DNA of 63,819 nucleotides, filler included, from Sluysia triapertura (lineage: Eukaryota): assembly GCA_046118255.1 (NCBI GenBank). It is 5 parts of 5 records of this genome, joined end to end, with 100 filler letters (N's around TTAATTAATTAA, not from the genome) between each part and the next. Parts side by side here need not be neighbours in the genome. Positions count along the whole stretch, not along the records: positions 1 to 13,765 come from JBJNIA010021403.1; positions 13,866 to 24,682 come from JBJNIA010193084.1; positions 24,783 to 40,596 come from JBJNIA010217807.1; positions 40,697 to 52,492 come from JBJNIA010170146.1; positions 52,593 to 63,819 come from JBJNIA010187157.1. One strand, 5' to 3'. How positions within the stretch are numbered: position 1 is the stretch's first letter; each line of letters starts with the position of its first letter. The position numbers and the translations under genes are program-made. The notes beneath the pieces are model-generated. The model saw nothing but the letters and a program-made list of their open reading frames with translations, was not told the DNA's origin and ran no database searches. Positions 7,610-55,500 of this stretch are shown here, in pieces.

Positions 7610-7880
7610 TGTCGTGACCAAACTCATTACTCAAAATTTTAAATCTTTATAGCACAACTATGCAACCAGACAACACCTATACCATTTAAAATATTTAATA
7701 TAAATTCAAATTTAAAATTAATCTACAAAAAGAAAATGAAATTTCTATAATTCAATTCTAATTCTTCTCAATTCTCCCTTATAACTCTTTTCCTACTCAC
7801 TCACTCCTTCTTAACCTTCTAATTTACACTTTATAACCCCTTCTCTCCCGCTACCATCAATCTACGAACTATATCAAGCA
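7610..7880 (+). repeat. TGTCGTGACCAA-initiated G-poor repeat (subfamily B)
   Basis: Shares AACTCATTA and GAAA.TGAAATTTCTATAATTCAA...ATTCT..CAATT blocks with the copy at 15342-15540. Confidence 0.7.
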
Positions 7881-9304
7881 GTTTTTGAAAACAAATAATA
7901 CGGATTGTTATCGAGATAACGAAAATATTAAAACAGATAACATGGGAATATTTTAGCAATATGATGTGGCTTTGAAGCGCCACATGTTAACAAAAAAAGA
8001 AAGAATTTGAATTACTTCATTAATCAATTAGATAAAGGAGACTCCAGCAGATCGGTTATATTATTTACAGCTGATAACGAAGTAATACTTACAGAAGATA
8101 GTCTAGAAAGTGTATTATGTTACCTTAATTCATCTATTATTTCGTTTATGCAGAAACGCGATATTGTATTACAATATACTTTTTATCTATCACTTTCTGG
8201 TACTAATGAAACTTCGAAAAATCAAGTCACTTCACAAAGAGTCAAAATCTTATTCGAGAATAGTTCGAAAATACCTTTGGATAAATATGAAATATCTGTT
8301 TTTGGGATTTGTATAATATAAAAAAATAGCTTGATACTTAAAGCACGCTAATATCATACGTCAATGCGTATCATAAACAGAAAATTGAAATATTTACATC
8401 TGGGAATTCACAGATCATTTCGCTATGTAATCGAAATCATTCATAGTGTCATGAATTTACTAAGATAATTGTAGAAAGATTCTTTCGGAGAAGAAATTTT
8501 GAACGACTTATTGAAATCAATAACAAAACTATTTAAAATCGAAGTTAAAACGTCATCGAAACCTGATTTACGAAAATAAACATAAAATCGGTCACTGGAT
8601 TATATAAATACAACATACACAAATAAAAGATAACCTTATCAAGTTTTTAATATCAGTGTCAGACATGCAGAAATTATCAAATTCAATTTCATCAGATTTA
8701 ACAAAACACTTTGAATTTTCCAGGAAAAATGTTAGATAAAAGATTTTTGAATTATTTAGCGTATATTCAGTTTCTCCAAAAATTGATTTATCAGGTAATA
8801 ACATCACTGATATGATTATTAAAAAGAAGAAAACTACAGAATATGAAGAATTTTCTGTAAAAATGTTTTTAGAAGATAGTTCAGATGTCGAAAAATTGAT
8901 ATCAAAACAAAATATGATTTCTGGTAGTGCTTCCATACACATTATTAAAGCAGTCAAACTAACTAACAACCGATCGGTACTGGTGAATTTCGATTGTTTT
9001 CTATTTTATTAGAATTGATATCTTAGTGATAAATTGTGTGTATTAAACGAAATAATTTTATACAACACAATAATAATAATTTCTATCATAATAAAATCCT
9101 TTAATATGTAAAATACCGCTACGCAATATGTTGCTAATTATTTCTATGTTTATTTGCTACTAAGTTTAGTAGTAGGCACAATTTCAATTTATACTTTGCA
9201 CGTCAATTTTGTTGACCACAACTGGTAATTACACACTTTAGTCCGGTTATATTTCATATGAAGCGAATAGTTTATAAAGTCATTGTCGACAAAGTTATAA
9301 AGTA

Positions 9305-9660
9305 TAAAGTGGCTATATCTACGAACTATGTTTGGATCAACTATGAATGAATATATTATGATTATTTTTGTACTTTTAGATAATGAAATTAAGTTATTCA
9401 TTGGAGACAATATGAACAAATTTAATTTTAAATCAATGGAAACATTGTACGATCCATACAAAGTGGCTATATCTACAGACTATATGTTTATTTTAGTACC
9501 GACGAAATTTAATACTATTTGGAGCACAGATACGTTTGGATCAACTATGAATTAATATATTATGTTTATTTTTGTACTCTTAGATAATATCAAGTTATTG
9601 TTGAAAACAACCTGAATAAAATTAATGTTAATCAAATCCAGACTATGTTTGATCCATCTA
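9305..9660 (+). repeat. Local tandem duplication (~165-205 bp units) of a coding-like segment
   Basis: AAAGTGGCTATATCTAC, TTTGGATCAACTATGAAT.AATATATTATG.TTATTTTTGTACT and GATCCAT each occur twice. Confidence 0.75.
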
Positions 9661-10869
9661 AGATCATTGTTTAAAAGTAATATACTCTACTGTTAATACA
9701 TTCTTTTCTTTTATCAAGGAAATCTTTATCCAAAAATTTTATGTTCTTAATAAATTTTCTTAAAGTAATATCACGGCTTTTATCATTTTTAATGAATTTA
9801 AATTAAATGTATCTTTGTAATAATAAATATAACACCGAAGTTACTTTATTTTTTTTACTAGACGTTGAATATTCTAGACATTCAACAAACAAGATATGAC
9901 TCATTATTTATCACAAGTAAATTTTTTCTTTATTATTCATTTATACAGCATATAATTTTTCTGACACAATAATTTTATATATTCTGAGGTAAGTTTTTAT
10001 CATATAGTTACTGTTTTTAGTGTGAAATAACAGAAGAAATACATGCAGATAAACACATGTGGCATATTTAATTTTTAGAAATCAAAAATTTATAAAGGTT
10101 TTTATTTTTTATTTAATTAATTTTTACATTATTTGCAAATGGCGAACAAGGCCGAAAATGGAAATAAAAACAATATGTAGAAATGTAACGGTTATTTTTA
10201 CAAATCACGAATGAAGACACAATTAATGTATAAAATAGAAATGCAGATGAAAAGATACTTTTTAAGAAGCTTTTCTAAAAATAACAATTTAGAAAGTGAA
10301 AATCACCAAGTTTTATGTTATCATTAAAGTGATAAAAATATAAAATCAGTACTTTTTTCAACGAAATAATAAATTTAAGAAATTAAAAATCAATAAGGAA
10401 ATAATAAAATACAGGCAGGAACTAAGATCAAGGATGGTGAAATTAAAGTATGGTACGATAATGATTTCGAAACAGATTCACTATATGAAAACACAATACA
10501 CACAAAGTTACACATTGTTTTTTATATAGAAAGTATAAACCTTAGTAATCACCACTGTGCTGATGATATTATTTAAACGAAACCTCAATTTTTTAAAAGT
10601 TGTCATAATTTTACAACTAAGCCCTCATCGAGTGTAAGTCGTAGATTGTAAAGGGACCCGTAAGAATATAAATTATTTTGCTTAGTTAGGAAATAAAAGA
10701 AGAAACCGAGCATATTCCAAGAATTTCTAGTTGGTCGGAACCTTCAAAAAATCTAGCATTTACAAAATACCTTCCAGTAATTTCAATTTACATGTTAAAT
10801 AATTATGATTTTAATTTTAAAGGTTGTTTTGCAAACATTGTTTTGAACACATTGATTCTAATAGTGATA

Positions 10870-11210
10870 AGGTTCCAGTCAGAAGATGAACAGCAGCATT
10901 GAAGAATGTTCATTATAAAAAATAAAACCATACTATCTTATCATGCTACAAGTTCATCGCATGTTTATTACCAATACTTATTTAGTAACAGTTAATTTTG
11001 ATCAAAAGCAATAATTCGAGACTCAAATCTTATTTCCACAAAAATCCTTATCAAAATAAACAAGTATATATCAACAGTTGATAAAATGGATTCGTGGATT
11101 TTATAATTCTTAAGGCCACGGAACTCTTGTTTCACAACCTCTACATACATACAATCAGAAAATTTTTTTAATGCAAATTTTATTATTGCGAATTGTTTTA
11201 ATATAGAGTA
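10870..11210 (+). mobile_element. Possible C-terminal part of a Maverick major capsid remnant
   Basis: SYFHKNPYQNK and ENFFNANFIIA loosely resemble the MCP KNPFNF and Y..GYTL.AF motifs; heavily degraded. Confidence 0.35.
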
Positions 11211-13443: not shown

Positions 13444-13765
13444 TGTAGTGGTCAACACTCACAACTTAAAATTTATTAAAACATAACATTCAACATCCAT
13501 AACTCAAAGTCCACTAAAACAATTTCTAAATCAACCACATTTCATACTATCGAACTCCACCAACTCAATCATCATAAACAACACTCGACATTTATAACAT
13601 CACATCAATTCATATATCAACAATTCGAATAACATTCTCAACCATCCATTTCACAACATACTCCGCTAATTAATCCCAAATAATCTATAACATTCACTCA
13701 AAAGCTATTTCATCAAACAAACCACAACCATAATATACAATACACAAATCATAAATACAATAACA
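13444..13765 (+). repeat. TGTAGTGGTCAAC-initiated G-depleted repeat head, cut by a gap
   Basis: 13-bp start motif followed by ~320 bp almost without G, up to the N gap. Confidence 0.75.
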
Positions 13766-13865
13766 NNNNNNNNNNNNNNNNNNNNNNNNNNNNNNNNNNN
13801 NNNNNNNNNTTAATTAATTAANNNNNNNNNNNNNNNNNNNNNNNNNNNNNNNNNNNNNNNNNNNN
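13766..13865. other. Artificial assembly gap/linker
   Basis: 44 N + TTAATTAATTAA + 44 N; the 12-mer has stop codons in all six frames. Confidence 0.98.
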
Positions 13866-13907
13866 AGAGTGAACAAAAAACGAAAGTTAATTTAACTTAT
13901 GCTTTGC

Positions 13908-13990
13908 TGTGAGTTCCTTACAATCTTAGGCTTACGCACTTAAGAGCTAAGTTGTAAGCAGTATTTTAAAAAAACTTATGTGGAGGTATA
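13908..13990 (+). repeat. Terminus of the dispersed TGTGAGTTCC... repeat
   Basis: TGTGAGTTCCTTACAATCTTAGGCTTACGCACTTAAGAGCTAAGTTG matches the reverse complement of 6840-6919. Confidence 0.65.
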
Positions 13991-15341: not shown

Positions 15342-15540
15342 CGTGGTGACCCAACTCATTATTCGAAATTCGAGTTTAAAATTGATCAATGAAAAGAAAG
15401 TGAAATTTCTATAATTCAACCGCAATTCTCTCAATTTTCTGCCATAATTCTCTTCTTTATTCACAACTTTCTATCACTTTTAGTACTTGACAGCTTCAAC
15501 TTCATTTAATACACTTTCTCTCACTCTTATTCCTCCATTA
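15342..15540 (+). repeat. (C)GTGGTGACCCAAC-initiated G-poor repeat (subfamily B)
   Basis: Colinear with 7610-7880. Confidence 0.65.
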
Positions 15541-17607
15541 GAAACAGGTTCTACTTCGAAAATGCTGTTCAATGTACAGAAAACAGAGTTCTTATAATAA
15601 TTGGTATTCCATCAAATCAGAATTCCTCATCTGTTACATCAACTTTGGTAATTCTTCTACTAATGAAATTTTTACAATGCGAAAATTTTCGACAAAGGAA
15701 TAATAAGTCTGTGTGAAAGTGTAGCGAAAAGAATAAAATAAAAGAAAAAGAAATACATGAAAACTACGAAACGTTTAAAGAAGAAAATACAAAACTTAAG
15801 AATGATTCTGAAATGAAATCAAATGAATTAATAACTAAATGGAAAGATGAAAACGATGAAGAGACTGTTTCATGGGAAATGTTAAATACAGTGTCAGTTG
15901 TCAAACAAATTAAAACTAATCCAATCAAAAGTTTTTTTATCGGTTATCAGTAAGCGAACTTTGTCGAACATGTACACAAAAGTTTTCAGAAGACAAAGAA
16001 AACGAAAGAATCGAAGACAATCAATTAAATCATAATCTGTGTTGTCATTCAATCAAAATAAATAATGTGCAGATTATGTTATGGGCCATTTGTTTATTGC
16101 CATTTCAAAGTTTGCTACCGATGACGAACAACTGATTCTACAGCTTGTCACACCAGTGTGTTATACTGACGTCTACTAAATGTTTTCGTAATAACATTGG
16201 ACTAATGAAGTAAGAAATCTTACCAATCTTTTGTTTATCTATTTTTCTGATGATTCTGGAAATTCATTCTTTCAATTATTTTATTCCCTTTATGTCCATA
16301 TAATAAATATTCGTTGAAATTTTATTTTGAATTTCGTTTTATAATATTCAAAATGTTAAATTTTATTATCAATTTAAATATTCATGAATTTTCATTAAGT
16401 TTAATAATATCCAAACAAACTAGCGAATTTTTACGAATATTTGCATGTATAATCGCTTTAAATGACTTCACCAATAACACATTTCTTAAGAGTAGACCAT
16501 CTAACTAAGATTATCAATCACTTTTCGTACCTTTCTAGTGATAGAGACGTATCGCATGTTCTGAACAATTATTTATCTTAACCAAACTATTTCTCTTAAT
16601 AAATTGATTTCTTTAATACTAGTTTCTTATGCTAGTAAAAACATTACCAAAGATTTTCAGTGAATATTAACCCTAAACTTATTTAAAGGAAAAACCTATT
16701 AAAATATGACTTATTATTACAAATGATTGGATACAATATTATAAACTAACACGAATCAGTAAAATCGAATTATTAAAATCAATATAGCAATATTACCACC
16801 AATTTACGAGATCGAATAATTTACCAAGAAATCATAAGTTATATCATTTTTGTCCTTTGTAGTATATCTAATTTGTAGTCACTAAGCATTATTTCTTTAT
16901 TTGAAAAATAAAATTTATTTTGTTGCTAGGCATTTCTCCTTTTCTTTATAAATTATTAATTTAGTTACTGGGTGTTATGTCCTAATTAAAATAAAAATTT
17001 ATTATTATTTTTATCACAATTATTATCAATATTATTATTATAATTATTACTGTTATTATTATTCTCTTTATTATTATTATCATTATTATTATTACTATTA
17101 TTACTGTTACTATTATACTATTACTACTATTATTATAATAGTATTATAATTATTATCATAATTATCGTTATTATTATTCTTTTGTATGTGTAAATTTAAA
17201 CATATATTCCAGTTCTTTACAGATATCCATTCATCGAGCATCCTTGCGACCTTACTTTGACAACTCTTATGCACTTTTTTTCTAGATAGATTTACCCTAT
17301 TTTAAAAACCTGTCAGAAATACTTGTTGAAGATTTAGTACTTGAAAACCTCGAGCTAAAAGAGATTTTAAGAATATTCCATCAACCGCTCTAAATATTTT
17401 TATAAAAAGATTCGTCATATTGATTTTAGAAGTAACTTGTTACATTCGATTTTTCATTATTTTGTGTCATATTAGATGGCAAACAATGGATTGTGGTTGG
17501 ATACTAATTAAACCACCTAGGGTTTTAATGTATTTTACATATTTCTTAATTATACCACATTATCTTGATTCTTGATTAAAATTATAGCCAGACTGAGTTT
17601 CCCTTTA

Positions 17608-17962
17608 TGTCCTAAAGTGGCATAAAGTGCTACAAAATAATGACAGTGTAATTGACTATAATAAAACAAAAATGTTAAACGGGGCTGATAGCTCAGTGGT
17701 TAGAGAATCGAACTGCACAGCTGTGAAAGGATTTCTGGCTAGATTCCCGGTCAGTCAGTTTGATGAAGTCTAACATTTGGTGAGCCCACATATCGAATAC
17801 TATTCTGATGTTGAATTAAATATTAAACATAATTAAATTAGGTGAGATATGTTGGGGTGCAGCCTAGCGTGCCAAAGATTAATAATAGTATAATTGACTG
17901 TAACTCAGTGGTCGGAGCTCAATGGTTCGATTCCCGGTCAGTCCATTTTATGAAGTCTAACA
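17608..17962 (+). mobile_element. Miniature non-autonomous LTR retrotransposon (TRIM) with tRNA-containing LTRs
   Basis: LTR1 ~17608-17775 (ends GAAGTCTAACA), PBS-like TGGTGAGCCC.. at 17778, 74-bp internal region, purine-rich AGGTGAGA at 17840-17847, LTR2 17850-17962 (TGTTGGGG..GAAGTCTAACA). Both LTRs keep A-box/B-box tRNA remnants. Confidence 0.75.
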
Positions 17963-18497
17963 TATATAAGAATCGATAAACCGACATTTCTAAAAAGGAT
18001 TCTAAAAAATAATTACTCATATCTCTATACTGGAGTTAATATGAAATATTATGACTAAGCGCAATTAATTGTTTATGAATAAATCTAATTAAAATTAAAT
18101 AAAATAATTATTTAAAATTAATTATTTAAAATTAATAAAATTAATTATTTATGAATAAATCTAATTAAAATTAAATAAAATGACTCTTTATTTGAAATGA
18201 AAAAACACTAATTTTAACACTATTTGTAAAATAATTCAAAATTTGTACTAAGAGCCTTTCAAATACAAAACATAAATTTATTGTTTATTTATTAATTTTT
18301 CTTAAAGTTTTTGTGTTTCTATTTAAAATAAATAAAATTTAAAATGCCGGAAAAAGCGTCATCGATAGTTTGAGTGGGGATTTATACTTATCTTAAAATA
18401 AGTTCTAAATGTAGAATCGAAATACTCATTTTACATAGCGTTCTCTAAAATTTTCCCGTTCACTCTCACAATTATTGAATCATATACCAATTATTGA

Positions 18498-18686: not shown

Positions 18687-19820
18687 TGTGGTGACCAACC
18701 TGTAACTGTTACACATTTTATTCTACCATCACACAAACCCACATTCACTATCAGAATCTACAATGTACATTTTAAAAACTCATTAAAAACATTTTTACAT
18801 ATTGTTTAATATCAACATAATCAAAATCATATTTTTCAACATTGCACAACTACCTTTTTAGAATGTACCAAAATCTAGGTTATAACTAATCTCCTTCAGA
18901 TCCACTAAAATATTCTATTTTCAATACAATCTTCTAACATCAAAACATTACTTTTATTCAAAAACATCAAAATATATTTAAAAATTCATTTAAAACATAT
19001 CATCTATTATCTTATAACGTTAAAATTACATTCAAATTCAGACCATCAATGCACATTAAAACCTAGTTAAAACATTTCATTCATCATTTCACAACATCAG
19101 AATTACAATTACACCTTCAAAATAATTGAAAACATCTCAAATTCATAGTATAATCACATCGGAGTCACATTCACTTTCAGAATTAAGAGCTTATAATTAA
19201 AAACTTCATAAAAACATTTTATTCATAACTCATAACCTTATAAGTATAATATGTACCGTGAAGGTAATCTAAAACTATACAAGTCCACAGTTCTTTAATA
19301 CTCAACCATTCTAAGAACTTCAAATATGTTCAGAACTAGCATTACGGTAAATAAAGATAATTCAAATATGTCGAGAAAAAGAAAGTTAAATATTAGAAAG
19401 ATTGTGTTATTATTATTAGAAAATTTAAAAGGTTTATCATTTTAGAATAATAGTAATAGTAATAACATTGTTATTATTATTATTACTATCATCATTTTAA
19501 TGTTACATTATTTTTATTAACAATTTCATTAATTATTAATTGTGTACCTACCACTATCAGTGGTGATATTATTGATTCGTATTTGCAGTTTATTGTCACT
19601 ACTGATAGTGGTTATGTTTCTAACAAATGTAAAAATTCAGTATTATTCAACCTGCTATCAGTCGACATGCATTTAAAATCATTTGCAGTTGCTTTATTAA
19701 CTGTCGACTGATGACAGTTCATTACGCATATCCTATATCAGTCTTAATAAGTATTTTGATGACTGCCCAATCAAAATTATTAATGTCGTTTGTTTCTCTT
19801 GTTTTGATTGGGCAGCCACT
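18687..19820 (+). repeat. TGTGGTGACCAAC family: ~1.1-kb head ending in a CCAAT inverted repeat
   Basis: Start motif, ~600 bp G-poor tract, then AAATATGTC.AGAA, CTATCAGTGG, TCAGTCGACAT and an inverted repeat at 19763-19776/19802-19815, colinear with 34381-35385. Confidence 0.75.
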
Positions 19821-19939
19821 TGCAATATCCAGAAGATTTATCAGCAACTGACAAAAATATTTACTAGATTATTTTTTTCTCAACCAGTTTCTGATTGTCA
19901 TTTTTCGCTAAAAACATTGAATGACAATTAATAGTAAAG

Positions 19940-20808
19940 AAGACATGGAACTTAGATTGAAAGCTCATACTGAATTAATAAATGTTAGAGATCCTTTTTC
20001 AAAATTAAGATTTCAATGTATGTCAAATGGTGAACCACACACGACAATAACTCCAAGAATTAATTATAAAGAAAATTTTGAAATAACTACTCTACGATTT
20101 GATGGTGCAACAGATGGCCACAAAGTATAAGTTAAATTTACAAAAGATTGGAAAATAGATGCCGAAAAACGTGATTTAACTATTAATTCTTTATATTTAG
20201 ATGATGATGTTCTTGTTTATTATTACTTCGGTAGCATTAAAGATTTAGATCTTAATATTATCCGTTTTGTTGGAAACAGTGTTAATCGAATCCAAGAAGA
20301 TTATTTAAGAATTTTACTATGTTTTAGATCTTTTGGAAGAATTTCGGAACAATCACATTCACACGTTTAAGGAATTTTACCTGATATTAAACAAAATTAA
20401 AAAATATTCGTGGTGAATGTATTTGGGCAGAAGTGAGTAAAGTTATTAAAGATATATTGAAGCGAATGTTTGAAGTAAATTTATTTCCTTATATTGGTTT
20501 AGTAAAAAATAATTTTGAAACTAAGAAAAAACGATTTCGTGAGTTTTATGAAAACTTGCAGAAAATGATGCCGCAATTTTTTAGGATTAATTATTGATAA
20601 TGTCAACGAATTAGATATTTTTCACAAATGGTTGAAGTTAAGTAATAATGAATTATTTATTATGCTTTATTTATTGGATAAACGTAATTTGAATGTGACA
20701 TTAAAAAATTTACAAGATAACTTCATTATGTTGGAAAATAAAAAACGAATTCAACATAATCGATTGAAAATAAGTCAATTTGAATCGTTGAAATTATTAG
20801 AAATATAG
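19940..20808 (+). pseudogene. TRNT1: Intronless disabled CCA tRNA nucleotidyltransferase (class II)
   Basis: GEPHTTITPRINYKENFEITTLRFD..TDGH, FTKDWKIDAEKRDLTINSL, IRFVGNSVNRIQEDYLRIL, IRGECIWAEV, FPYIGL and LKLSNNEL follow TRNT1. In-frame stops (e.g. 20128-20130), frameshifts, and no catalytic GG..RD/DxD segment. Confidence 0.92.
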
Positions 20809-21929
20809 GAAATAATTAATTATTATTATAATTACTATATGATTATTGATTTTGTTATAATAATTACTATACAAATGATCTTTTGGTAAACAACATTTAT
20901 TGAAATTGAAAATTTTATTGGAATTTTATTTAAAAAATGTAAGTATTAAAATATTTTATTTAAGAAAAATGATAATTAATTAAACCGAGTTAAAATAAAA
21001 ATTAATTAATTAACTAACTTGAATTAAAATAAATATAAACGTTTTAATTGTTTAATCAAAATCAGTTAGTTTTACAAGGTTATTTAAAACATTCTTACAG
21101 AGTTTTTCGCATTTTATACTTACTTTAATCAGTTCACAGGATTGCATTTTAACTTGGATTTCAAATTGTTAAATATCCTTAGTTTTATTTTATAGGTAAC
21201 GCGACAATTTAGTTCGCAAGGTAATATTTACTCAAAATCATTGTAAATTCTTTTCGGTTAACGTTTAAATTTGTTAACCAAGTAAAATGTCATTTATTAA
21301 ATTGAATTTAAATAAGGTTATAATATAAATAATTTTTGTAAAATCTCTATTATTATAAATTTTATTTTTGACTTTGTAATAATAACATTATTCATGTAAC
21401 ATTTTTATTATAATATACCTTAGTGTCATTTGATTTAGTTTTGATTTAAGAAGGTTCAGTTTAATTAAACCTGAGAAAATTTTATTAAGATATTTTACAA
21501 TTTCTTTCTGGTTCATTTTAAGAACCAAAGTAAAATACTAAATTTTGTAAACAGTTTTATTTAAAACCGAAATAAAATTTAATCATATTCGAAATCCCTT
21601 CTAGAAGTTAATACATATTTTCATTGAACATTAAGGATGAATTTCACTCTTATAATCTTTACTTGATGAACTAACGTTATTTATACATTTAACAATTAAA
21701 TTTAAACTAATTATCTCAATAGATATTACTGAAAGAATAAAACTAAACAATAAAAACATGTATTACACGAAATTTGACAAAAAATTTAAATTTTTATTAT
21801 ATTCATAAAATTCTTTAATTTTGTTTGAGTATGCCACAGGACCAGACGTACGTAATTTTCTAAATAAAATTAAATATATAAAATTATGATCACAAAGAAG
21901 AATCAAAACAAAGTCATTTTTTACCTTAA

Positions 21930-24359: not shown

Positions 24360-24682
24360 TGTGGTGGCCAACCACACACCTTGAGAATTTTATTCCAGTA
24401 ATCCACAATAAAAACCATTTTTGCGAACATTCACAATTGTCATTATCACAAAGCTTTTCAAACATAGAATTTCACATCACTCTATACGCTTTTACATTTA
24501 AATCTTTTCATATTTTATCTCTTTACTTTCAATAAAATCCTATCACAAATTTTTCAAAACATTTCCATTTCATATTTCATAACATTAAAATTTCATACAT
24601 GGTAGACTTTTAACGCACATAAAATTTTACCTAAAATATTTTAACCTATAATTCATACCATTCAAACCACAACTTACATCTC
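24360..24682 (+). repeat. TGTGGTGGCCAAC-initiated G-depleted repeat head, cut by a gap
   Basis: Start motif followed by a G-poor tract running into the N gap. Confidence 0.75.
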
Positions 24683-24782
24683 NNNNNNNNNNNNNNNNNN
24701 NNNNNNNNNNNNNNNNNNNNNNNNNNTTAATTAATTAANNNNNNNNNNNNNNNNNNNNNNNNNNNNNNNNNNNNNNNNNNNN
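24683..24782. other. Artificial assembly gap/linker
   Basis: 44 N + TTAATTAATTAA + 44 N. Confidence 0.98.
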
Positions 24783-24788
24783 TGTAAT

Positions 24789-30242: not shown

Positions 30243-30316
30243 TATTTTATTTAAATTCTCAAAAAATATGTTGAATTAAACTTAGACATTTCGTTAATAT
30301 AGTCTATTTCTTTTAG

Positions 30317-30560
30317 TTTCGGCAGCTTGGTGCTGGGTTCAAAAACTGGTATTATTTATAACAACAACATGGACGACTTTTCGAGTCCTAATCAAACAAA
30401 CTCCTACGACTTGCCGCCATCTCCATCGAATTACATATTTCCTGGAAAACGACCAATGTCGTCCATGAGCCCTGTCATAATAGTAAATAAAGACTCTGGT
30501 GATGTGGACATTGTTGCTGGTGCTTCTGGAGGCTCGAGAATAATATCTGGGGTTTCTCAG
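30317..30560 (+). CDS. GGT: Gamma-glutamyltranspeptidase / glutathione hydrolase, internal exon
   Basis: ttttag acceptor and CAG|gtaat donor; FGSLVLGSKTGIIYNNNMDDFS..NYIFPGKRPMSSMSPVII..AGASGGSRIISGVSQ is the GGT small-subunit signature. Confidence 0.93.
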
Positions 30561-30779
30561 GTAATACTTTTAAACAAAATGTGTTATTTATTTGCAGTAA
30601 TATTACTATCTTAAATATGTTTCATTTCTGACGACAAAGTAGTCGTGTTGGTCTTTTCTTTACTCTACAATCGTTGTTCAGCAGAATACTATCAGGCCGA
30701 AGTCAGTGCTCTACTATTTTGTACTCATTTGATGCTGAGTTTACTCAACATTTATAAATATTCTGCCGAATAAAAAACT

Positions 30780-33186: not shown

Positions 33187-33326
33187 AATGGGATAAGCGC
33201 CAAAAGTCCATTTAGTATAATTGACTGTAATAATCTAAAATTGTCAGTCATGGCTGACAGCTCACTGGGTGGAGAATCGAATTTCACAGCGAGAGGTCCC
33301 GGTCAGTCCATTTATGAAGTCTAACA
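33187..33326 (+). mobile_element. Diverged copy of the tRNA-containing LTR
   Basis: GTATAATTGACTGTAATAATCTAAAATTGT..GGCTGACAGCTCA..GAGAGGTCCCGGTCAGTCCATTTATGAAGTCTAACA. Confidence 0.8.
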
Positions 33327-34380: not shown

Positions 34381-35385
34381 TGTGGTGGCCAACATTTAAC
34401 CTTCATAAATTTTATTAAAATTCACATTTCATATTTCTCAAAACTCACAAAATATTCCTTTTACATAAGCTTTTGTTAACACAACATATACCCTCAAAAT
34501 CTACAAATTACATTCAAAAATTAACATAAAACAAAAATAAACTAAATCAACACATTGTACATAAAACCATACCCTTAAACATTTTAAACATATTTATCCC
34601 TTTTATATCCACTAAAAACATCTTCATCCGTTAAAATCAATTAAACCCACAATCTCATAACATTCAAACCACTATTACACTCTAAACCATTAAATTACAA
34701 TAAAAAAATTCATCTAAAATATTTTATTCTCCATTTCGCAACAATACAATCAAAATCACATTCGAGACTAGCTAACAAACATTCTAAATTCATGATATGA
34801 ATCATTTAATTCTCAACAGCACATAGAGACATCACTATTCATAAATTATCTTCAGTCAAAGACATTAATCGACATCTAAAAATTCATTTTAAACATCCCA
34901 CATATTACGGCATAACATCATAAACTATAATTCTTTAAAACTTTCCTTTTTTAATAAATTTAAATATGTCAAGAAGTTTAAGATGTAAAAGAAAGATCGC
35001 GTTAATTTCGGAAAGAGTTTATGCAGTTTAATAATAATAATAATAATAACATTGTGTTATTATTATTATTATTTTTATTATTATCATCAATTTTTATTGT
35101 AAAACATTTAACTTTGTATTCAACTCTATCAGTGGATATAATTTTAATTTGTAGTTATAAGCAAATTATGATAGTAACCAAATATATCATTCACAAAATT
35201 TAATTACTATTAGCTGTCATCAGTCGACATATATTTCAAATTAATTGTTATTCTCTTACTAGCTGTGGACTAATAACAGCTCAGTACATGACCATCTGCT
35301 TCATTTCTTGCTCTTGCTGACTGTCCAATCAAAATTCGTATTTATGTCACTGGTTAAATCCACTTTGATTGGGCAGTCGATTACA
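34381..35385 (+). repeat. TGTGGTGGCCAAC family: ~1-kb head ending in a CCAAT inverted repeat
   Basis: Colinear with 18687-19820; inverted repeat at 35319-35333/35364-35378. Confidence 0.75.
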
Positions 35386-35399
35386 ATTATTTCCTACAA

Positions 35400-36860
35400 A
35401 AAAACAAAAATTAAAAATTTTGTACCAACGATTATAAAAAGATTTTTGATTAATAACAAAAGGAGTGAAAAATTACAAAATATAGTGCAGTTGAAAATGC
35501 AATCAAGAAATCTAACAATAACGAAAGTGATGATTATAAAGTTAACAATAACAAAACTGAAATAACCGTTGATTGTTCTGATGAAGTAATTAAAATGTCG
35601 AATTAGTTAAAGAAGTTAAAGTTGAAGATGTTACTCTAATGACGAAGTAAGGTTTAGTTTTCATCATATAATATCATCCAAACAAGAATGCTCGTATGAT
35701 CAAATTCGTTATTTTATGTACCAAATATCTTGTGGCCTTAATTACATTTATTCGTCTACATTAACGCACGGATACGTGAGACTTGTTAATGTTTTCATAA
35801 ATAATAATTATCTGAAGAAGATAACTTATTTTGGAAAGACAGGGTCAATTGAACAAATAAATCCAACACAGATTCTGATCCAGATTTTAATTGTACGCTC
35901 CAATATGTCGTGAAGATGATAGATGAATTTCAACAATTAAAAAGGTTATTACATAATAATCCTATTTATAATGTTACTGTACAAATTAAGGAACATATGT
36001 TTTTAGTAAGCTTGAAAGACTTCCAAGAGTTAGCTACATGTTAACTGATACAATCAGAAAAAGATATAACGTATGCAGAATCAAATTCATAATGTCTTCC
36101 CTTTATGAACGATCCGAGAACGATGATCAGAACAATGCCTGAATCGAGAATGTTATTAATAATGCGTTTATTTAATGTGACTCTTTATTCATTAAATAAA
36201 TTTAACTGCTGTACAACAATAAAGAGTAACATTCTGAAAATACATACTCCATCCAATGTAGATTTGTCTCTTAAACGTAATACTACTATTAGAGCTTTTA
36301 AATTCAAAATACGAATGATTTGTTTATATTATTTACTCTCTGTGAAGTGTCTAAAGATGTTGATTGTGAACCTAACGATTATAAAAAAGTCGATTACGAA
36401 CTTAATGACTATAAAAGTTTTTATTACTAACTTAACGATTATACAAATGTTGATTACGAACTTAATGCTTATAAAATTAATGATTACGAAATTAACGATT
36501 CTAAACATTTTGATTAGAAAGCTAAAGATTATAAAGATGATGATTTATAACAATTATAAAGAAGATGAATTCCATTGCGATCTATGCCAAACTCGTTGGA
36601 CTAATGTGGATCCTGGTAATGGCATCAAAAGAGCAATTGTGTTAAATATGGGAACAGCTGTATATGCCCATACCTCAGAAGAACTGATGAATTCATACAC
36701 CAATTCTTTACAGAACATTAATCATCTTAATCGAAGCGGAAATATATTAAGATCCTTTGAAATTTCTAATCTGATCACGAGCAATAACGATACGATTGAC
36801 AACGAACTTAAAGTAATTAAATTATACACCGATAATAATAGTATTATAATTTTTGTTTAG
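35400..36860 (+). pseudogene. Decayed unknown gene with 30-nt (decapeptide) repeats
   Basis: 36354-36560 holds ~7 degenerate 30-nt units reading KDVDCEPNDY/KKVDYELNDY/TNVDYELNAY, followed by DEFHCDLCQTRW; stops present. Confidence 0.4.
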
Positions 36861-39228
36861 ATAACGGAACGGTAGAATCTCGTGGCGCATCCTTCAGGAC
36901 AGCATATTTAACTTTTATCTATGTAATAAATAAAGTTTTATGTATTATTTGTTATTTGTTAACTTTCATTTTTAATTTAAAAAATAAATCTCAAAAATGT
37001 GTCTCTTTTTATCACAATGAAAAATTGAATTTTAACACAAAATCAAATTTATATATAACAATATTAAGTAACACTTCCAGTTGATATATATTTAAACATT
37101 AAAAAAGAAATGTAAGGAAATGGCGGTTCTTGCAATAAAACAATATGGCTGGGTACGTGAATATAAAGATGATAAAGCTGGTCATCCCGCATAATTCTAA
37201 TTGAGAACGATTAATAAATATTTCAAGAGAATTTTAAAAATAGTAGTTATGAACATGTGACAAATTAAAGGTTAAAAAAGGCTGAAACGAATGAAATTAG
37301 TTGTGGAAAACTTAGCTTAGCTCTCTCGACTTGTATTCTTGTTTATTCAAATAGGAACTATTAGATTTAGCATGCCATAGATGCAAGTATATCGAATTAT
37401 ATTGTAAAAATAAATTTGTAGGTGTGTTATTCCTTTGTTTCCTATTCGATTGTAAGGATTTTTAATGTAGTTTTAGCCTAATAAGTTTTGCTTAATGATA
37501 TGATAACAGTAAAAATAATATGGAAAGAGAAGATAGATCATTTTGTGTAATAAAAATGTGCAGTTAATTAACTAATTTTTTGCAATAATGATGATAATAA
37601 AATAATAATTGTTCGAATTTATAACTCCCAAACAAATATCAGAGAACATAACATTAGTAAATCAATCAGTAACAACAATGCAACAATAATAATATTATTA
37701 TTAACAACAATTTTGGTACAAAGGTAAATTTTGATTGTAAGTCAATGTGATTGTATTATGAAAATTGTGTGTGTGTGCGTATTATGTATACTTGTTATTT
37801 TTCTGTTAAATTGTGTTGATGTTTGTTTAGCACTTTATTGATAAATTGTTAGATTATATTGATGTTTGCTTGTGATTAGAGTATTTAGATTTAGAAATTT
37901 AAATTCAGCTTATAATACTGTTCTATCATCTCTATCAAATGATCCAAGTCAACATTTTAATGCAGGATGCGTGAATCAGACAAGTTCTAGAACAAGAAGA
38001 GATGCCAATATCGGCAGTAAAACACCGACATGCTAAACAAAGAGATTGAGGCGGTACGAGTGGGAGAAATGTACGTGAAAAATGGAACAATTATTAATTT
38101 TTGAAATAATGTTAGTTAATTCTTTCAAATTTGTCGAATGTGTAACTCATGATCCATTCGACATGTTAACGAATGTTTCACCTAAAACGTTCAGACAAAA
38201 CTTATCTATCGTTAGTTATCATTCTGTATCCAAAGTTTACTTTTTGTTCATATAAAAATGATTGTCTCTTTAGTTTTATATATAAATATGTGAATTTCGA
38301 TTTAGACAACTTTTTTATTTATGAAAATATTTTATTACAAATTATATTTTATTACATATCTCGTAATACATTACAAGCAGTTTCAATTGCTTCCAAATTG
38401 CATGCTACTGTTTCTGGATGTTTATCCTTTCTTTCCCAATTATTATTGAATCCTCCGGCTACCATTGAACTTTCGAACGCTTTTTGAAGAATCAAGAATT
38501 CTCCTATTTCGACAGCATGATCCTCCCAAGCACATTGCTAGTGCTAAAATTTTGTTTTGAAGTTCTTGTCGACACACCTTCTTGCGACCAGAATTTCCTT
38601 TAATTCTGGAAATGACTTTCATGCCGACTTTTTAAATTCTCCAACAACATCTTTAATTGTTCATTTTGGCAATTTCCTATTGTTAGTTCGCAGAACTTTT
38701 AATTTCCGTGATTTAAAGTGAGTTGGACTGAAAAGAAAATAACAGCGAGTTACTTTGGTACAGAGCCAAAAATTACAAATTTCAGAAATTGCTAGTTATT
38801 TATAAAATTATTATAAACTGAACAATTACTTCCCAAAAACTATTTTGTGATTTTAGATTCTCTATTGTTCTTAAACAAATCACATTGTTAAGTTAGCAAC
38901 AAATGTCAAATGAAACAATCATTTTTTGAACAGAGGTAGTATTAAAAAATAAAGATATTCAGAACTGGACAAGTATGTAATCAGTGGATCCAGAATAAGA
39001 CTTTCGAATAGATGATAGTTATTAATCGAGAAACGGTAATAAGACCGTTTTAAGTTATATTGAGCAACCACAGTAGTAACAATACAGATAGTGGAAATTG
39101 TAGATTATGCTTTAGCTTAGGTTGAAAAGTATTGGCATTATGAAGATATGAAGATTGTGTAAAGGTGATTATTGATTATACGAATATGCGAGAATATAAA
39201 AATGTATTGATAAATGGTTGAGTATGTA

Positions 39229-40040
39229 CAGAGTGTCCCAAAAGTAACCAAACAGCAAACTTAAATAAAAATTAATTATTAAAAACGACAAATTTAATAG
39301 GTATATTTAGTATTTCCAAATCTTCAAAATGTCCACCTTGAACTTCAATACAAGCACGATATCTTTTGACAACACTGCGACACACTTTCTGGATAGGTGT
39401 CCTCTGAAATTTGGTTCCATTCGTGATGAATACTTTGTTTTATTTGATCAACTGTTCATGGAAAACATCAGACTGTATCAGATCCGTGGATCTGTAAGAC
39501 CATTCGATTGGTCCAATCCAACATCCATTGTCGAACATCTTTGGTCTATTGCGCAGGTGCTCCATAATATTGAAAATGAAGATCACCGAAATGGGAAATT
39601 CGTTATCAATAGGAAACACTTTAGTCTTCAGTATATCAAGGTAACGTTCACCATTAACAGTTCCTTCAAAGAAGAATAGGCCAACTAGACCAGTGCTGCC
39701 GATTGTGACTGCAGGAAGATTAACTTTCTTTTCAGTAATATTACGGGAATTCTTATTGTCATAATAAACAGAATTTCGTCTGTTAACATCAAGCTTCATC
39801 ACTTCATAAGATGCAATCTGGAAAATCTGGTGATTCTTCACAAAATTCGAATCGTTTACCGGGTATTCGAAAGACTGCTATTCGCAGAAGGAAATGAATA
39901 GTAGCGAAGATAACATAAAATGACTTAAAAGAAGAAATTACATCTGAAAATATGAGTTTGAAAATGTGGTACTGTTTTTGAATACATGACTCAACACAGA
40001 GCACATCTGCAGAAAATCTTAATTTATAATCCACTGGATA
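39229..40040 (-). mobile_element. Decayed Tc1/mariner-superfamily element (maT/rosa-like DDxD)
   Basis: GLFFFEGTVNGERYLDIL, WIGPIEWSYRSTDL (WPPRSPDL motif) and CIEVQGGHFE; terminus TA|CAGAGTGTCCCAAAAGT. Confidence 0.85.
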
Positions 40041-40326: not shown

Positions 40327-40463
40327 CATTAGTCATATTAATCATTAGTCATATTAATCATTAGTCATAATATTAGTCATTAGTCATAATATTAGTCATT
40401 AGTCATAATATTAATCATTAGTCATAATATTAGTCATTAGTCATAATACTAATCATTAGTCAC
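40327..40463. repeat. ATTAGTCAT-based minisatellite (16-19 bp period)
   Basis: CATTAGTCATAATATTA(G/A)T repeated in tandem. Confidence 0.9.
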
Positions 40464-40478
40464 AATATAATAAATAAT

Positions 40479-40596
40479 TGTAGTGGTCAACCTCTTAATT
40501 TAAAAATAAAATAAAATTTATCACATAAAACAACATCACTCATCACACCCTTCAAACATAAAACACCACTCAACTCATTTCATATAACAATAAAAT
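40479..40596 (+). repeat. TGTAGTGGTCAAC-initiated G-depleted repeat head, cut by a gap
   Basis: Start motif followed by a G-free tract up to the N gap. Confidence 0.7.
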
Positions 40597-40696
40597 NNNN
40601 NNNNNNNNNNNNNNNNNNNNNNNNNNNNNNNNNNNNNNNNTTAATTAATTAANNNNNNNNNNNNNNNNNNNNNNNNNNNNNNNNNNNNNNNNNNNN
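40597..40696. other. Artificial assembly gap/linker
   Basis: 44 N + TTAATTAATTAA + 44 N. Confidence 0.98.
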
Positions 40697-41176
40697 TTAG
40701 AAATTTATTGTAAATATTCTAGAATTTTATTTCAAAAAACACTCAAGAAGGATAATGAAAATTCATGATTTTTCAGACCACTATATTGTCATTTATTTAT
40801 CGATCATGCACCAATGCACCAGGAACAGCCCTATTAATTTATATTGCAATAATATCTACTATAAAATAAATAAATAAAATCTGCTGTCGTTTTTCTAACT
40901 CTTAATCTACGGCAAAATATTTTTTGAGCAGGCCCCGGTAACAATAAACATCTTATGTCGTGAAGAAGGTGTTCTTATAACTAAATAAGCTAATATTTTA
41001 CCTGAATATAGGTGTTCTGTTGTTAGGCTCTTTAACAAATACTCAAATGATATAAAATTTTAATATTTTTAATAAAAACAAAAATATCAACTTTATTTAC
41101 ACAAATATCAAAAGATATTAGAGTAATAATAAAAACAGAAGATAGCAATAAAAAGATATTTTAAGGATTAAAGATC

Positions 41177-41890
41177 TGTGGTGGCCAACCTTTTCATTGA
41201 AAATTTAAAATCATTTTTTATCACATTTAATAACATTTTACATTTGCTAAAACATTTCAACATATTTAAACTCCTCAAATTCACAATCTTACAACACCAA
41301 ACTTACATTTTCATTCAAACCATCAATGTAGATTTCAAATTTAATTCAAATCAATTTTAACTCACAATTTCACAACATTCTAATCACAATCTACATCTAA
41401 AATTATCACTGAATAAGTTGAAATTAATCTAACACATTTCAAGGTCACAATCCTTAACACCTTTGAAAAACCTTAGCCTCACAATTCTTAATTATTTTTT
41501 AATATTTACGTCAACAAAACGCTACTTAAGTTAAATTCATTTTTGTAATATGTTAAGAAATAAGAGAAAGGAAAGAATCTTAGAGAGTTTATGCACTTTA
41601 AACTTAATCTTATTTGTACTAGTTTTAATTTATCATTGGTTTGATTTATTCAGCCATTAATATTATCAGTGTCATTCTCATTATCTTAGTTGCCGTGTAG
41701 GTTTAATCAAAATGACTGTCAATTTGACATTTTAATTTATTATAATTTTCATCAATGGTTACAACACGGAATCACTGATCGTAACATGCCTCATATATTT
41801 GTTGCAATTTTTGATTTTGTTTCAAATGGCCAATCAGAGGATTCAGTGACACATATAGCTGGAAATGAATATTGATAATTGGTGGATTAA
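41177..41890 (+). repeat. TGTGGTGGCCAAC family head, shorter diverged copy
   Basis: Start motif, G-poor tract, AATATGTTAAGAA..GAGTTTATGCA, TATCAGTG, and a CCAATCA..ATTGG pair in the same order as 34381-35385. Confidence 0.7.
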
Positions 41891-44966: not shown

Positions 44967-45125
44967 TGTTGGGGTAAAAGGCCTATTAAGTGCCAAGTAG
45001 TATAAATGAATATAATGAAAATGAAATTGTTAGACGGGGCTGATAGCTCAGTGGTATAGCATTCGAACTGCGCAGCGATGGTCCGGGGTTCGATCCCCGG
45101 TCAGTCCATTTTACGAAATCTAACA
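44967..45125 (+). mobile_element. Solo tRNA-containing LTR (159 bp) with 4-bp TSD ATAC
   Basis: ATAC|TGTTGGGG...AATCTAACA|ATAC; contains the tRNA-like unit at 45037-45108. Confidence 0.85.
45037..45108 (+). ncRNA. tRNA-like Pol III unit (repeat-borne; Cys/Ala-like, anticodon arm disrupted)
   Basis: Acceptor stem GGGCTGA/TCAGTCC, A box TAGCTCAGTGG, T arm CCGGGGTTCGATCCCCGG (B box), TTTT terminator at 45109-45112. The anticodon arm pairs poorly, so it is not called a functional tRNA. Confidence 0.75.
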
Positions 45126-45391
45126 ATACTTTATGTAAGTCCTGGAATAAATCTTAGAAATAATATAAAACAAACTGAGTACTTATTTTACCGTAGATAT
45201 TAGTTTGATATAAATTAACATATTATTATTACAGGATGTCCATCCTTATTTCAATTATTAAAGTTTACTAATCCTTATTTCATTTATTGCCAATTTAGAA
45301 CTTAAATTTAAATTTTATAAAACTTAATTATTCTTGCTATATTAAAATAAGTGAAATAAGGGCAAAACGGAAAAATGTTTTACATCCAAAT

Positions 45392-47719: not shown

Positions 47720-48351
47720 ACGGATTTTGTAATTGACCTTATGGGCCAACTAAAAGGCAATGATTTTAGATTTTAAAATTATTTTATGAATGATCTTAAT
47801 GACCAATCAAAACAAACTTACTGATTCAATTAATAAATTAATGTTCAAGCTCAGAAAGCGTTTTCGAGGTAACTTGAATGATTAGTTTGCTGAGAATTTG
47901 AAGTTGCAATCCCTCTTATCGTATACGCAAAATATAATGCTGCTGGATGATTGATTGATTTAATAACCAAAAAACGGTGGATGGGATTGATAATTTTCGA
48001 ATTAATGGCGTCTATGATTTCTTCAATAATGATGACGTTTTTCTTTATCTGTGTTTCTTTTTATATGCATAAAGCCATATTTTAAAAATTACTTTAATAA
48101 AACAATTTTCTATTCTCGAACATTCTTTTTAATTCTTTTTAGGTTACTCTTAATATAATTAATTATTAATTTTAATTTAAGTATTATGAGGATTTTTTAA
48201 ATAATAATAATTTTTACAATATTTTAGAATTTTTTAAAATATAAAATATAAAAATTTTTACACCTTTACATTAATTTAAAACTTATATTTAAATTTTGTA
48301 TTTACAGTTTGTATTTGTAAATAGAAGTAGTGTTAAAACGTGGTCACAACA
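47720..48351 (-). repeat. Dispersed ~600-bp repeat, inverted relative to a copy at ~51080-51660
   Basis: TTGACCTTATGGGCCAAC vs GTTGGCCCTTAAGGTCAA, plus a shared AAAAAGAATGTTC block; this copy begins TGTTGTGACCA on the minus strand. Confidence 0.55.
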
Positions 48352-52359: not shown

Positions 52360-52492
52360 AAATAAATGAAGAAAAGTTAATTGTAGGTGGTAAGGCACTA
52401 GATGCGAAGCAAAATGTACGAAATATAGGTTGTTATATGGATTCAAAAATGAACATGGAAGAAAATATTAATTGCATTGTTAAAAAGTGTAA
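52360..52492 (+). mobile_element. L2/CR1 LINE reverse transcriptase C-terminal fragment, cut by a gap
   Basis: LIVGGKALDAKQNVRNIGCYMDSKMNMEENINCIVKKC matches the VRNLGV..DS.L.M..HI..V.K.C motif. Confidence 0.75.
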
Positions 52493-52592
52493 NNNNNNNN
52501 NNNNNNNNNNNNNNNNNNNNNNNNNNNNNNNNNNNNTTAATTAATTAANNNNNNNNNNNNNNNNNNNNNNNNNNNNNNNNNNNNNNNNNNNN
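52493..52592. other. Artificial assembly gap/linker
   Basis: 44 N + TTAATTAATTAA + 44 N. Confidence 0.98.
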
Positions 52593-55500
52593 GATCTACC
52601 TTAAGATGAAAAATTGTGTACATTTTTGAAAATAATATGTACTCACTTGAATTATATAACTATAATGTATATAATTGTTCTTATTTGGATTATGATAAGG
52701 CAAATATTAACTATAAAATTATATTATAAGTTTATATCATAGAGGTGGATAACTATTATATAGACAGAAATGAATAAGATTTAAAAAATGTGTATTTTAT
52801 AATATAATGATTGACCAGATGGTGAAAATTGAGAAATGAAAAGATTATACTATACAAAATATATTAACACAATATCTGGCCACTATAACATACACAAAAA
52901 CGCACTATAATAAGAAATAAGTAAACAAGATAATTCAAGACAATAAGGAAGACGAAAATAATGCAATTTTTAACAAGCAATTAGTTCTCACATATTACAA
53001 ACGGATAATACTTTGACTCAGATCAATCATTTGTTCGACTGTGATCTGATTTCAGTTCTTATTAATTGATTGGCTGATTTTAATTAATTATTTATTCGAT
53101 TTTAGTTAATCATTTCTTGGGGAAGGATTGACTACTTGTATTCAATAGTATATAAAGTTGAAATTTATAAATAATTAAAGATAGTCTAATTATATAAAAA
53201 AATTTATATTAAGTGTGGTTTTTCTTTTGCAACTTTACTGAAATGTATCACGATTCCGTTTTTTAATTATTCATTTGACTTCATTATTGTTAGAGTTTTT
53301 CCATTGAGTTGTGTTGTTAATAAATTATCTCTATCGTTAAAACTTACTTATTTCCGATTTGAGAACGTATTATAATAATTAAATTAAGGGAATTTGTGAA
53401 GTTATTAATTAATTTACTATAACCTATAAAGGTGCTTAAAATATTTATATGTTGACTTTTTAAATTCGTCTGTTTGATTAGTGAAATCATAAACAACAAA
53501 AACATACGAAAGTTTTATTTAAAATTATAAAAAACTAAGTTCATAATATTTTTCTTCAGAAAAGCGAATGGATGTGGAATAAAACGTTCTAAAACAACAA
53601 TAATAATAATAATTTCACACTTAATTTGTACACTAAATTGTCCAGTGTGTTTTAATAACAAAGCTTTACTCTCGTAACTTAACATAAACGATGCATATCT
53701 TTATCTTCAAGATTTAAAATTGATAATATATATCATTATCTTTAAAATGTAACACTACTGACATATTTTATCTTACATATTTTATCTAAAATGTAACATT
53801 ATTTAATAAGTGTATGATAAAAATATTTAAATTAAATCAATATAAACCGTCATTATAAGAGGAACATATTGAAGAAAATGTGTTGACTTTTAAATAGTGT
53901 TAAATTCTATATTATTTATTTCTATACAACGATAGCTTGTTAGCTCTGTATAATTTTGTAGATGGTAATTTTAAATTCAAAGTATCACATTAAAAAAGCA
54001 AAAGTTGTTAAGAACAATGTTCTTTAATTCGTATCTAAAAAGAAATTGAATTTAAAAGTTAATTTAATAAAGATGTAAATAATCGATTATAATTTTTACT
54101 ATAATTAAAATAGAATAAAAATAAATTTATTTATTATGGATAAAAAAATTAGATACACTCTAGTACGGGTTGTCCAACGAAATATCTACTTCTAAAGCGT
54201 ATTATAATTCAAAAAAGTAATCGCAAAAATTATTTTTTTCTATTGCTTCTTATTCCTATTATTTGAAATTCTTAAATCAAAATGAACACGCTATTAAAAA
54301 TACGCATTATAATGGAGTGTTTTTATTTTAAAACAAAGAATATAAAAATTAATTATATGAAAAATCAAAATATTCTTTATTCAGTACATTTCCCAGATTT
54401 ATCTTTTATCGATCATTATCAATGTAAATAAATGTCAATATTCTTAGCTGATAAAACATTAAGGATAATAAAGACGTAGTAAAATCATTTGTTTTACTAA
54501 AGTGTATAATAATTATAATAATAATAATTATTATTAACAATAATGCTTAATTTTATTACACACAATTAATAACTTATTTATTAAATAACTTTTAAATTGT
54601 GTTAACTTTTTCATTATTGTAATAGTAAAAAATCTTCTTGAAAAAGAAAATTGCAATGAAATTACGTAAAGTAAGTGAAATTTGAAATTTATCAATACGG
54701 AATGAAGACTAATTTGTGAAGTATAGATTTTTATGAATTTTAATTGACTGAATGGAATGTTTAAATTACATGAATGAAAATTTCTTTTTAAAATGCTTGT
54801 TTATTAGTGTCAAAATATTGTTATCATCTCAAACCATCAAATGTCTTAACAAAAATCATTTAAATCATTAAATTCTAAAAAAGAAATAAGAAATTCTAGA
54901 ACATTCCAGTATTCACAATTTAATTTATCAGATAATTCATTATTGATTATTTGATTGTCACGCCCAATTTTTATTGATACCATATTGTGGTTTATTCAGT
55001 CAACAATCAAATTCAGTGCTATTTGATTTTAATTCTTAGCTGGCAAAAATTTGGTAGGTCAATTTAGCTTATCGACTAATGTTCAGTTTTACTTTCTTTT
55101 AATTGTTATTTTTTATAAGGTAGTTTCAATCCTTTGGAGTGAAATAATAAAATCTTATTTATTTTATTTATTCCAACCCGATTTAATAAGGCGAAAAATC
55201 TATAATTAAAAGTACAATTTTTAAAGTTACAAATCTGAAAAATATCAATTTTATCATTATTTTTGTCTCTCTATTTTATTTTCGACTATATATAATATTT
55301 AATAGAATTTTGAAATTTTGTTTTTTATTATTAAATGTATTTAGTTAAAACTGAAGTTACCAGTAAAGTATTTAATATACTTCAATAAACTATTTAAATT
55401 ATAATTAAAATAGTTTAGAGTTAAGTTTAAAGTAACAGAATTGAAGTAGATTTGAGATAAATTTGTGGATTTGATTATTTGAAACTGTAGATTAAGCTTT

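Follow-up and report, generated by a model that had tools for sequence, protein, structure and literature searches.

What are the strand-asymmetric sequences that recur along a 63,819-nucleotide stretch of the Sluysia triapertura genome (assembly GCA_046118255.1; five pieces joined end to end, hereafter the window), each opening with TG and running on into DNA nearly devoid of G? A preliminary description had read them as the long terminal repeats (LTRs) belonging to a large, high-copy Gypsy-like element. We find that host-gene cargo within the LTR is the main feature of the family, and one absent from that description. In our judgment the shared head motif, TGTRGTGRYCAAC, probably marks the left end of LTRs from a CsRn1-like Gypsy element. 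These LTRs are mostly 2–3 kb long and hold pieces of host genes behind a conserved cluster of hairpins; template switching onto mRNA is the likely route of capture, and most copies are likely solo LTRs. We read the heads as LTR starts because an integrase end and a purine tract precede them, a primer site precedes gag, and 5-bp duplications flank the units.

The head family is real, since the exact motif occurs 16,816 times in the 619-Mb genome against 63 matches (29 + 34) for a reversed control motif and about 17 per strand expected from base composition. Within the window there are six exact copies on the + strand and none on the − strand, where composition predicts 0.002 per strand. The preliminary description listed eight starts, all on +. 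Those at 13444, 18687, 24360, 34381, 40479 and 41177 carry the exact motif. The other two, 7610 and 15342, are degenerate members of a sister family that opens sharply at a TG of its own and has a G-poor leader of about 250 bp, variable DNA after it and no hairpin module. The assignment of 7610, which has no homology to that module, is based on its head and leader, and pol linkage is established for the main family only. The supposed bias toward one strand disappears at the genome level, given 7,940 forward and 8,876 reverse copies. G content is 0–5% after seven of the window heads and 9.7% after 15342 (window mean 12.2%); in the first 20 genome loci it is below 5% downstream of 21/21 exact heads. 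The strand skew extends over the full element (about 12% G and 22% C in the internal region) and is strongest in U3.

Heads also break the assembly. The four gaps in the window, three of which had been described as beginning inside heads, are artificial joints and not genome sequence, but the first three stretches are whole contigs (13,765, 10,817 and 15,814 bp) that do terminate 322, 323 and 118 bp inside a head. Among the first 100 matches listed, a contig start is no more than 500 bp away for 35/50 start-facing heads, compared with 5/50 inward-facing heads (P = 7e-10, Fisher's exact test); because start-facing heads cluster in this way, the family explains many contig breaks. The C-poor tract reported after the fourth joint lies in a separate stretch (7.4% C, 13% G). 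Three reverse-complement-like ends fared no better: those at 40776–40785 and 52877–52890 have no homology to any locus compared, and near 48341–48351 a repeat stops before reaching the motif; none of the three is the boundary of any repeat found.

Copies do share a boundary at the TG. Homology to the head at 34381 opens at the TG and stops sharply near 37,060, and nearly all matches to 13444 begin at its first base. Divergence of the tracts behind conserved termini, as described earlier, holds between subfamilies, whereas copies within subfamilies are 77–94% identical. Most of 30 tail loci have the end ..AACATCACAACA in common and diverge beyond it. Units are 2.0–3.1 kb long (mostly 2–3 kb) and consist of a G-poor tract, four hairpins, a middle resembling an open reading frame (ORF), AATAAA and the end, their TGT..ACA termini forming an 8–9-bp imperfect inverted match. 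Exact 5-bp duplications, above shuffled controls, flank them: 4/27 head-and-end pairs have one (shuffled mean 0.16, maximum 2), in a set for which three duplication-bearing ends were picked with the flank visible and which includes 5′ LTRs or other non-solo copies and misassigned ends. For LTRs carrying a CCA-adding-enzyme (TRNT1) cargo and anchored on a shared tail motif, the figure is 4/8 (0 in 5,000 shuffles), four further head-bearing copies without the anchor having been dropped; in the four printed cases the duplication is 5 bp and does not extend to 6.

The heads are physically linked to a retrotransposon. A purine-run pattern search found 15 heads, among them locus L159 (the real tract ends in GCTGA), where a decayed gag is followed by a protease (PR), a reverse transcriptase (RT), an RNase H (RH) and an integrase (IN) (Pfam E = 1.6e-5, 1.3e-23, 4.8e-13 and 2.4e-12), this pol lying directly 5′ of a head homologous to that at 34381. 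The succession from integrase C-terminus through CTTC(R)AGGGGGCTGA to head was seen by eye at 23/30 loci found with the L159 integrase end, with heads of both TGTGGTG and TGTAGTG types, and the order PR-RT-RH-IN is linked to the repeat in L159 and L228. A homologue search returned two unnamed proteins (47% and 33% identity). Ahead of gag, about 2.0–2.4 kb from its core, lies the primer-site motif AA(A/T)TGGTGTCAG(G/A)AG, with 506 genome matches vs. 0 for a control. The site reads TGGTGTCAGRAG, which we take to be of tRNA-Leu type; no tRNA gene that would name the primer was found by ARAGORN (0 in 14 loci), Rfam (0 in 8 loci) or a gene pattern (0). A tRNA-Trp primer site was rejected, there being 0 matches to the LTR end followed by TGGTGACCCC. 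From primer site to 3′ head the internal region measures 5,440–5,989 bp in L228, L270 and L272. The gag knuckle is CX2HX9CX3C (CYYH/N-x9-C-x3-C in L159 and L228, degenerate in each), and gag matches DUF7041 (Pfam E = 1.7e-6), a domain presumably tied to CsRn1. The purine tract, primer site, linked gag-pol and 5-bp duplications thus uphold the earlier reading as high-copy Gypsy LTRs; its "large" fails, the internal region being 5.4–6.0 kb.

Many other primer-site loci hold relics or tandem units situated where LTRs end, or come from other families. Tandem 25–41-bp relics of LTR end plus primer site stand at the right ends of L302, L313, L315, L287, L127, L136, L295 and L336 and suggest repeated duplication of the priming region. 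In L309/L424, L314, L328, L421, L423 and L426 the motif extends into 30–45 bases complementary to the 3′ half of a mature tRNA, CCA included (53 genome matches to the combined pattern), which could represent a copied primer tRNA or a different family. Just 5′ of the gag core, a segment of about 70 aa ending in GG (L228:5610-6080, L270:2378-2704) looks ubiquitin-like by eye; Pfam and PDB searches lent this no support.

The family works like CsRn1 elements and probably derives from them. As far as excerpts of two sources go, the CsRn1 clade is defined by a CHCC gag knuckle, a tRNA-Trp primer site and 4-bp duplications (PMC2582038), and has the end motifs TGTGGYG / MSYYAMA, with LTRs that average 330 bp (PMC3601003, Table 3). 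Measured against these partial accounts, our family shares with CsRn1, PwRn1 and AgCR the CHCC knuckle, the order PR-RT-RH-IN, a purine tract before the 3′ LTR and the want of any env found; the heads TGTGGTG and TGTAGTG and the end CCCCAAA of L386 fit the motifs, and the CACAACA of the long solo units fits partly. It differs in its primer site (TGGTGTCAGRAG, not tRNA-Trp), in its 5-bp rather than 4-bp duplication, in LTRs mostly of 2–3 kb vs. a mean of about 330 bp, in the host cargo within the LTR, and in a G-poor leader or N-terminal extension of about 2 kb ahead of the gag core. Knuckle and ends agree with the clade but primer site and duplication length do not, and we do not file the family as a plain member.

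The resemblance to planarian Burro elements drawn in the preliminary description did not survive. An AT-rich animal genome, long LTRs, strand skew and assembly breaks recall these Gypsy-group elements, which are likewise hard to assemble and also carry host-like domains (PMC6431247, in part); that our units are LTRs of giant Burro-type elements is nevertheless hardly credible. The same partial account gives Burro/GYPSM1 an internal region of up to 25 kb, a 4,873-aa polyprotein, CCHC knuckles and env, none of which was found in the present family with its 5.4–6.0-kb internal region, CHCC knuckle and DUF7041 gag. Pfam scans of internal ORFs found no MATH, BIR, BCL2, ankyrin or env, and the host domains sit in the LTR, not in a polyprotein. 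A giant Burro element was rejected on internal size, knuckle type and domain content.

Cargo was surveyed in 70 heads with at least 1.9 kb of downstream sequence, a sample biased toward two query subfamilies. An inverted CCAAT/CCAAC pair lies at 0.7–1.7 kb in 39 of them, and the DNA behind it falls into 16 clusters. All identified cargos are on the sense strand. They include the CCA-adding enzyme (window 19843–20742; Pfam PolyA_pol, E = 2e-12; human TRNT1, E = 1.5e-32), a rhodopsin-type G protein-coupled receptor (GPCR; 7tm_1, E = 2e-12), a nuclear receptor (zf-C4, E = 3e-6), a hippocalcin/NCS protein (E = 2e-13) and, in L057, an Unkempt-like CCCH finger (zf-CCCH_UNK, E = 2.6e-5), as well as weak kinase scraps (E = 0.012–0.033) in relatives of the 34381 cargo. 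One orphan cargo (L124) had no homologue among 450 candidates.

The CCA-adding-enzyme cargo of the window passed through a spliced mRNA. In the host gene (L338) a 103-bp GT-AG intron comes after the catalytic GGAVRD..DID exon. In the window copy, which is 86% identical to L338, this intron is gone, the exons are joined and the catalytic part is missing. The best TRNT1 relatives reach just 45–55% identity across most of the exon. Most of the other 28 copies likewise join the exons and start 3′ of the catalytic motif, with 78–93% identity to the host gene across copies. Out of 448 candidates, at least 150 are TRNT1-like matches in the genome, and LTR-module homology lies upstream in 19/24 of those with enough flank. 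LTRs of this type also hold a CCCH module and, in most copies, a GT-AG intron of about 70 bp; this intron is precisely missing in L368 and L370 and is therefore a second sign of an RNA intermediate. Purifying selection on the cargo was looked for and not found, apart from a weak deficit of stops in changes shared by 4–9 copies (3/110, P = 0.036). In L361 (C195344), a TRNT1 piece lies in frame inside a 519-codon open frame of other origin, with no LTR module upstream.

Splicing also bears on a reading of the units as DNA transposons, Pack-type or Ginger-like, in which genomic DNA is taken up between short imperfect inverted ends. Variable cargo and the inverted match of the TGT..ACA ends are what such elements would show. 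We consider this highly improbable, since the units are attached to a purine tract, a primer site and an RT-bearing pol, lack long inverted repeats and contain a spliced TRNT1 cargo; the spliced junction and the pol linkage largely refute it.

Several results weigh against a CsRn1-like Gypsy element with long, cargo-bearing LTRs, and the main gap concerns pairing. Matching LTRs occur in only 1/5 elements spanning primer site to purine tract, namely L386, a full-length but internally deleted copy with an exact 5-bp duplication whose 105-bp LTRs are 97/104 identical (93%) and end in CCCCAAA. In L228 the 2.83-kb 5′ LTR resembles the 3′ LTR at only about 70% in the head and holds different cargo, the LTR ends of L270, L271 and L272 gave no match (with just 110 bp comparable for L272), and no cargo-bearing long LTR was found twice around one internal region. 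Unmatched pairs likely stem from recombination between elements or from misassembly. In addition, 23/27 head-and-end pairs lack an exact duplication, long LTRs of the TGTAGTG type gave neither right end nor duplication, and the known leader follows the primer site at only 5 of the first 30 such loci. As for cargo, the loose CCAAT/CCAAC pattern also matches 57/273 random windows, so that some clusters and singletons may be flanking DNA; many cargo ORFs have no Pfam match; splicing is demonstrated for the TRNT1 type alone; and changes in TRNT1 cargo are near-neutral (70.5% non-synonymous vs. 71.4% expected), with 200 open codons in 1/29 copies.

The pairing gap also suits an arrangement in which the true LTR is the short G-poor head (60–350 bp), hairpins and cargo being the internal part of a non-autonomous LTR-flanked retrocopy or DNA inserted later. 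The sole matched pair is indeed short, and LTRs of 62, 80 and 105 bp from head to primer site exist (L230, L393 and L386). We think this unlikely. Between head and cargo there is no primer site, the shared end is not preceded by a second head, the duplications enclose the entire 2.1–2.9-kb unit, and long units finish directly at primer site and leader (L228). Moreover, 11/20 LTRs behind the purine tract run on into the hairpin module, and those of L160, L261 and L264 carry CCCH cargo. Where a head is in reach, its distance to the primer site ranges from 62 bp to 2.8 kb, and 20 junctions of primer site and leader share little upstream except ..CC(C)CA(T)AAA.

Heads exceed primer sites by about 33:1, and solo units therefore dominate. 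The same ratio would be expected if single units had integrated directly as one-LTR DNAs, with both integrase ends on one LTR, and spread by means of the family's enzymes. Cargo types far more numerous than the few internal regions show, and the relic or tandem primer-site units at many right ends, point the same way. A high solo ratio is ordinary for long LTRs, though, both outcomes leave identical sequence, and no RNA template able to prime such a product was identified, and we regard direct integration as very unlikely compared with loss of internal regions from the CsRn1-like element.

How might host mRNA enter an LTR? We propose that the first strand transfer, that of the minus strand, is when capture takes place. 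DNA synthesis started from the primer site would leave the short right-hand end of the LTR, and the nascent DNA would jump onto a co-packaged mRNA, copy part of it and then return to the 3′ end of the element. A jump to the mRNA and back would therefore place the piece, sense-oriented, inside the repeat. If jumps into the low-complexity A/C-rich, G-poor tract came too early, the 60–105-bp LTR variants could result, repeated rounds of capture could build chimeras such as TRNT1 + CCCH, and LTR–LTR recombination would leave solo cassettes. The hairpin region is a putative promoter or intron, and the cargo is putatively transcribed. A bolder and rather doubtful extension treats the LTR as a self-contained and exchangeable gene cassette, made up of promoter, hairpins or intron, a slot for cargo and a poly(A) signal, and drawing on host mRNAs at first strand transfer. 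Thousands of solo LTRs would then be expressible chimeric genes or sources of small RNAs against essential genes, some cargo might be kept as useful to the element (for example, a dead CCA-adding-enzyme body with a CCCH finger binding or shielding the primer tRNA), and single LTRs might integrate alone.

The family is probably a CsRn1-like Gypsy whose long LTRs take up and multiply pieces of host mRNA, a form of LTR-mediated gene capture. In LTR-mediated retrocopies, according to excerpts of Tan et al. 2016 (PMC5131818; maize Bs1 cited there), mRNA takes the place of some internal ORF sequence between the two LTRs. Known capture of this kind yields few copies. As in the retrocopies of Tan et al., spliced mRNA pieces are fused to an LTR element, form multi-gene chimeras and are further amplified. 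The present cargo differs from the retrocopies so described in lying inside one repeat bounded by a duplication, in persisting in solo units and in reaching at least 150 copies for one type. A piece captured within the LTR would gain two copies with every insertion and would outlast solo-LTR formation, in keeping with at least 150 fragments of a normally single-copy CCA-adding-enzyme gene. Retroviral genes inside or overlapping the LTR are familiar from MMTV sag and HIV nef, which resemble our cargo as ORFs within the repeat. These are single fixed viral genes, whereas the present slot is occupied by numerous host fragments, unrelated to one another and for the most part decaying. A literature search turned up no paper on a retrotransposon carrying a CCA-adding enzyme or on host genes taken up into CsRn1-clade LTRs, although Repbase or Grohme et al. 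2018 with its supplements may already list the family under another name; the available portions of PMC11410931, PMC8532177, PMC13238120 and 10.64898/2025.12.11.693146 do not describe it.

As such, the family is a large source of chimeric, mostly broken pseudogenes, and small RNAs that match essential genes may come from it too. It is a trap for gene-family counts in this genome (GPCRs, nuclear receptors, CCCH fingers), and its roughly 17,000 homologous heads are a substrate for ectopic recombination.

Features of the window are collected in Table 1. For the LTR at 18687, no 3′ end was found and the CCCH tail seen in relatives is missing. At the complete copy starting at 34381 a target duplication is not recognizable, and a Pfam search of its cargo gave no match in the window copy itself. 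Neither cargo nor end was identified for the LTR at 41177.

Table 1. Repeat heads, LTR parts and joints along the window
Position	Strand	Feature	Basis
7610..7880	+	Sister-family head and short G-poor leader (TGTGGTGACCAAAC type), then variable sequence	Many of 40 genome matches begin at or near its first base
13444..13765	+	LTR start (G-poor U3 end), young TGTAGTG subfamily, cut by contig end	40 matches at 87–94%, nearly all from query base 1
13766–13865, 24683–24782, 40597–40696, 52493–52592		Artificial filler joints, not genome sequence	N runs
15342..15545	+	Degenerate sister-family head, like 7610	Identity to 7610 79% (91 bp) and to L412 72% (812 bp)
18687..20820	+	LTR with CCA-adding-enzyme cargo	Exact motif; cargo homology
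19450..19817	+	Conserved four-hairpin cluster, closing with the inverted CCAAT/CCAAC pair	z = −7.1, 0/100 shuffles; common to other subfamilies
19921..20817	+	Broken ORF: element-derived N-terminal leader joined to spliced TRNT1 mRNA piece	Host homology 20026–20817, exon junction 20070/20071
24360..24682	+	LTR start, contig stops within	Exact motif; weak homology to other heads
34381..37062	+	Complete solo-type LTR of ~2.7 kb: G-poor U3, hairpins, cargo, AATAAA, shared end	Homology from TG to ~37,060 in many copies
35030..35380	+	Hairpin cluster	z = −7.6, 0/100 shuffles
35500..36860	+	Decayed cargo: kinase-like scrap, 30-bp acidic tandem repeats, CCCH finger	Pfam matches of relatives
40479..40596	+	LTR start, contig stops within	Exact motif
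41177..41890	+	LTR start, shortened G-poor tract, partial hairpin module	Exact motif; homology

Other repeats and coding pieces lie alongside these units. A 19-bp tandem array of seven copies (40335–40468) stops 10 bp before the head at 40479. An AAA ATPase frame, 232 aa without a stop (4818–5516, −; E = 1e-29) and presumably PEX1-like, has altered conserved residues and adjoins a G-poor stretch (5511–5710); it may be another captured mRNA piece. There are also scraps of a piggyBac-type transposase (1750–2175, −; DDE_Tnp_1_7, E = 2e-10) and of a mariner-like element recognized by eye, with no Pfam match (39440–39877, −), and a gamma-glutamyl transpeptidase exon (30303–30614, +; E = 4e-30). A separate high-copy repeat of about 230 bp occupies 48030–48300 (834 candidates, 82–91% identity). 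Finally, a dispersed repeat resembling a tRNA-derived short interspersed element (families D19 and D20) occurs at 17663–17963, 33232–33290 and 45018–45126 and also inside LTRs (L032/L048, L238).

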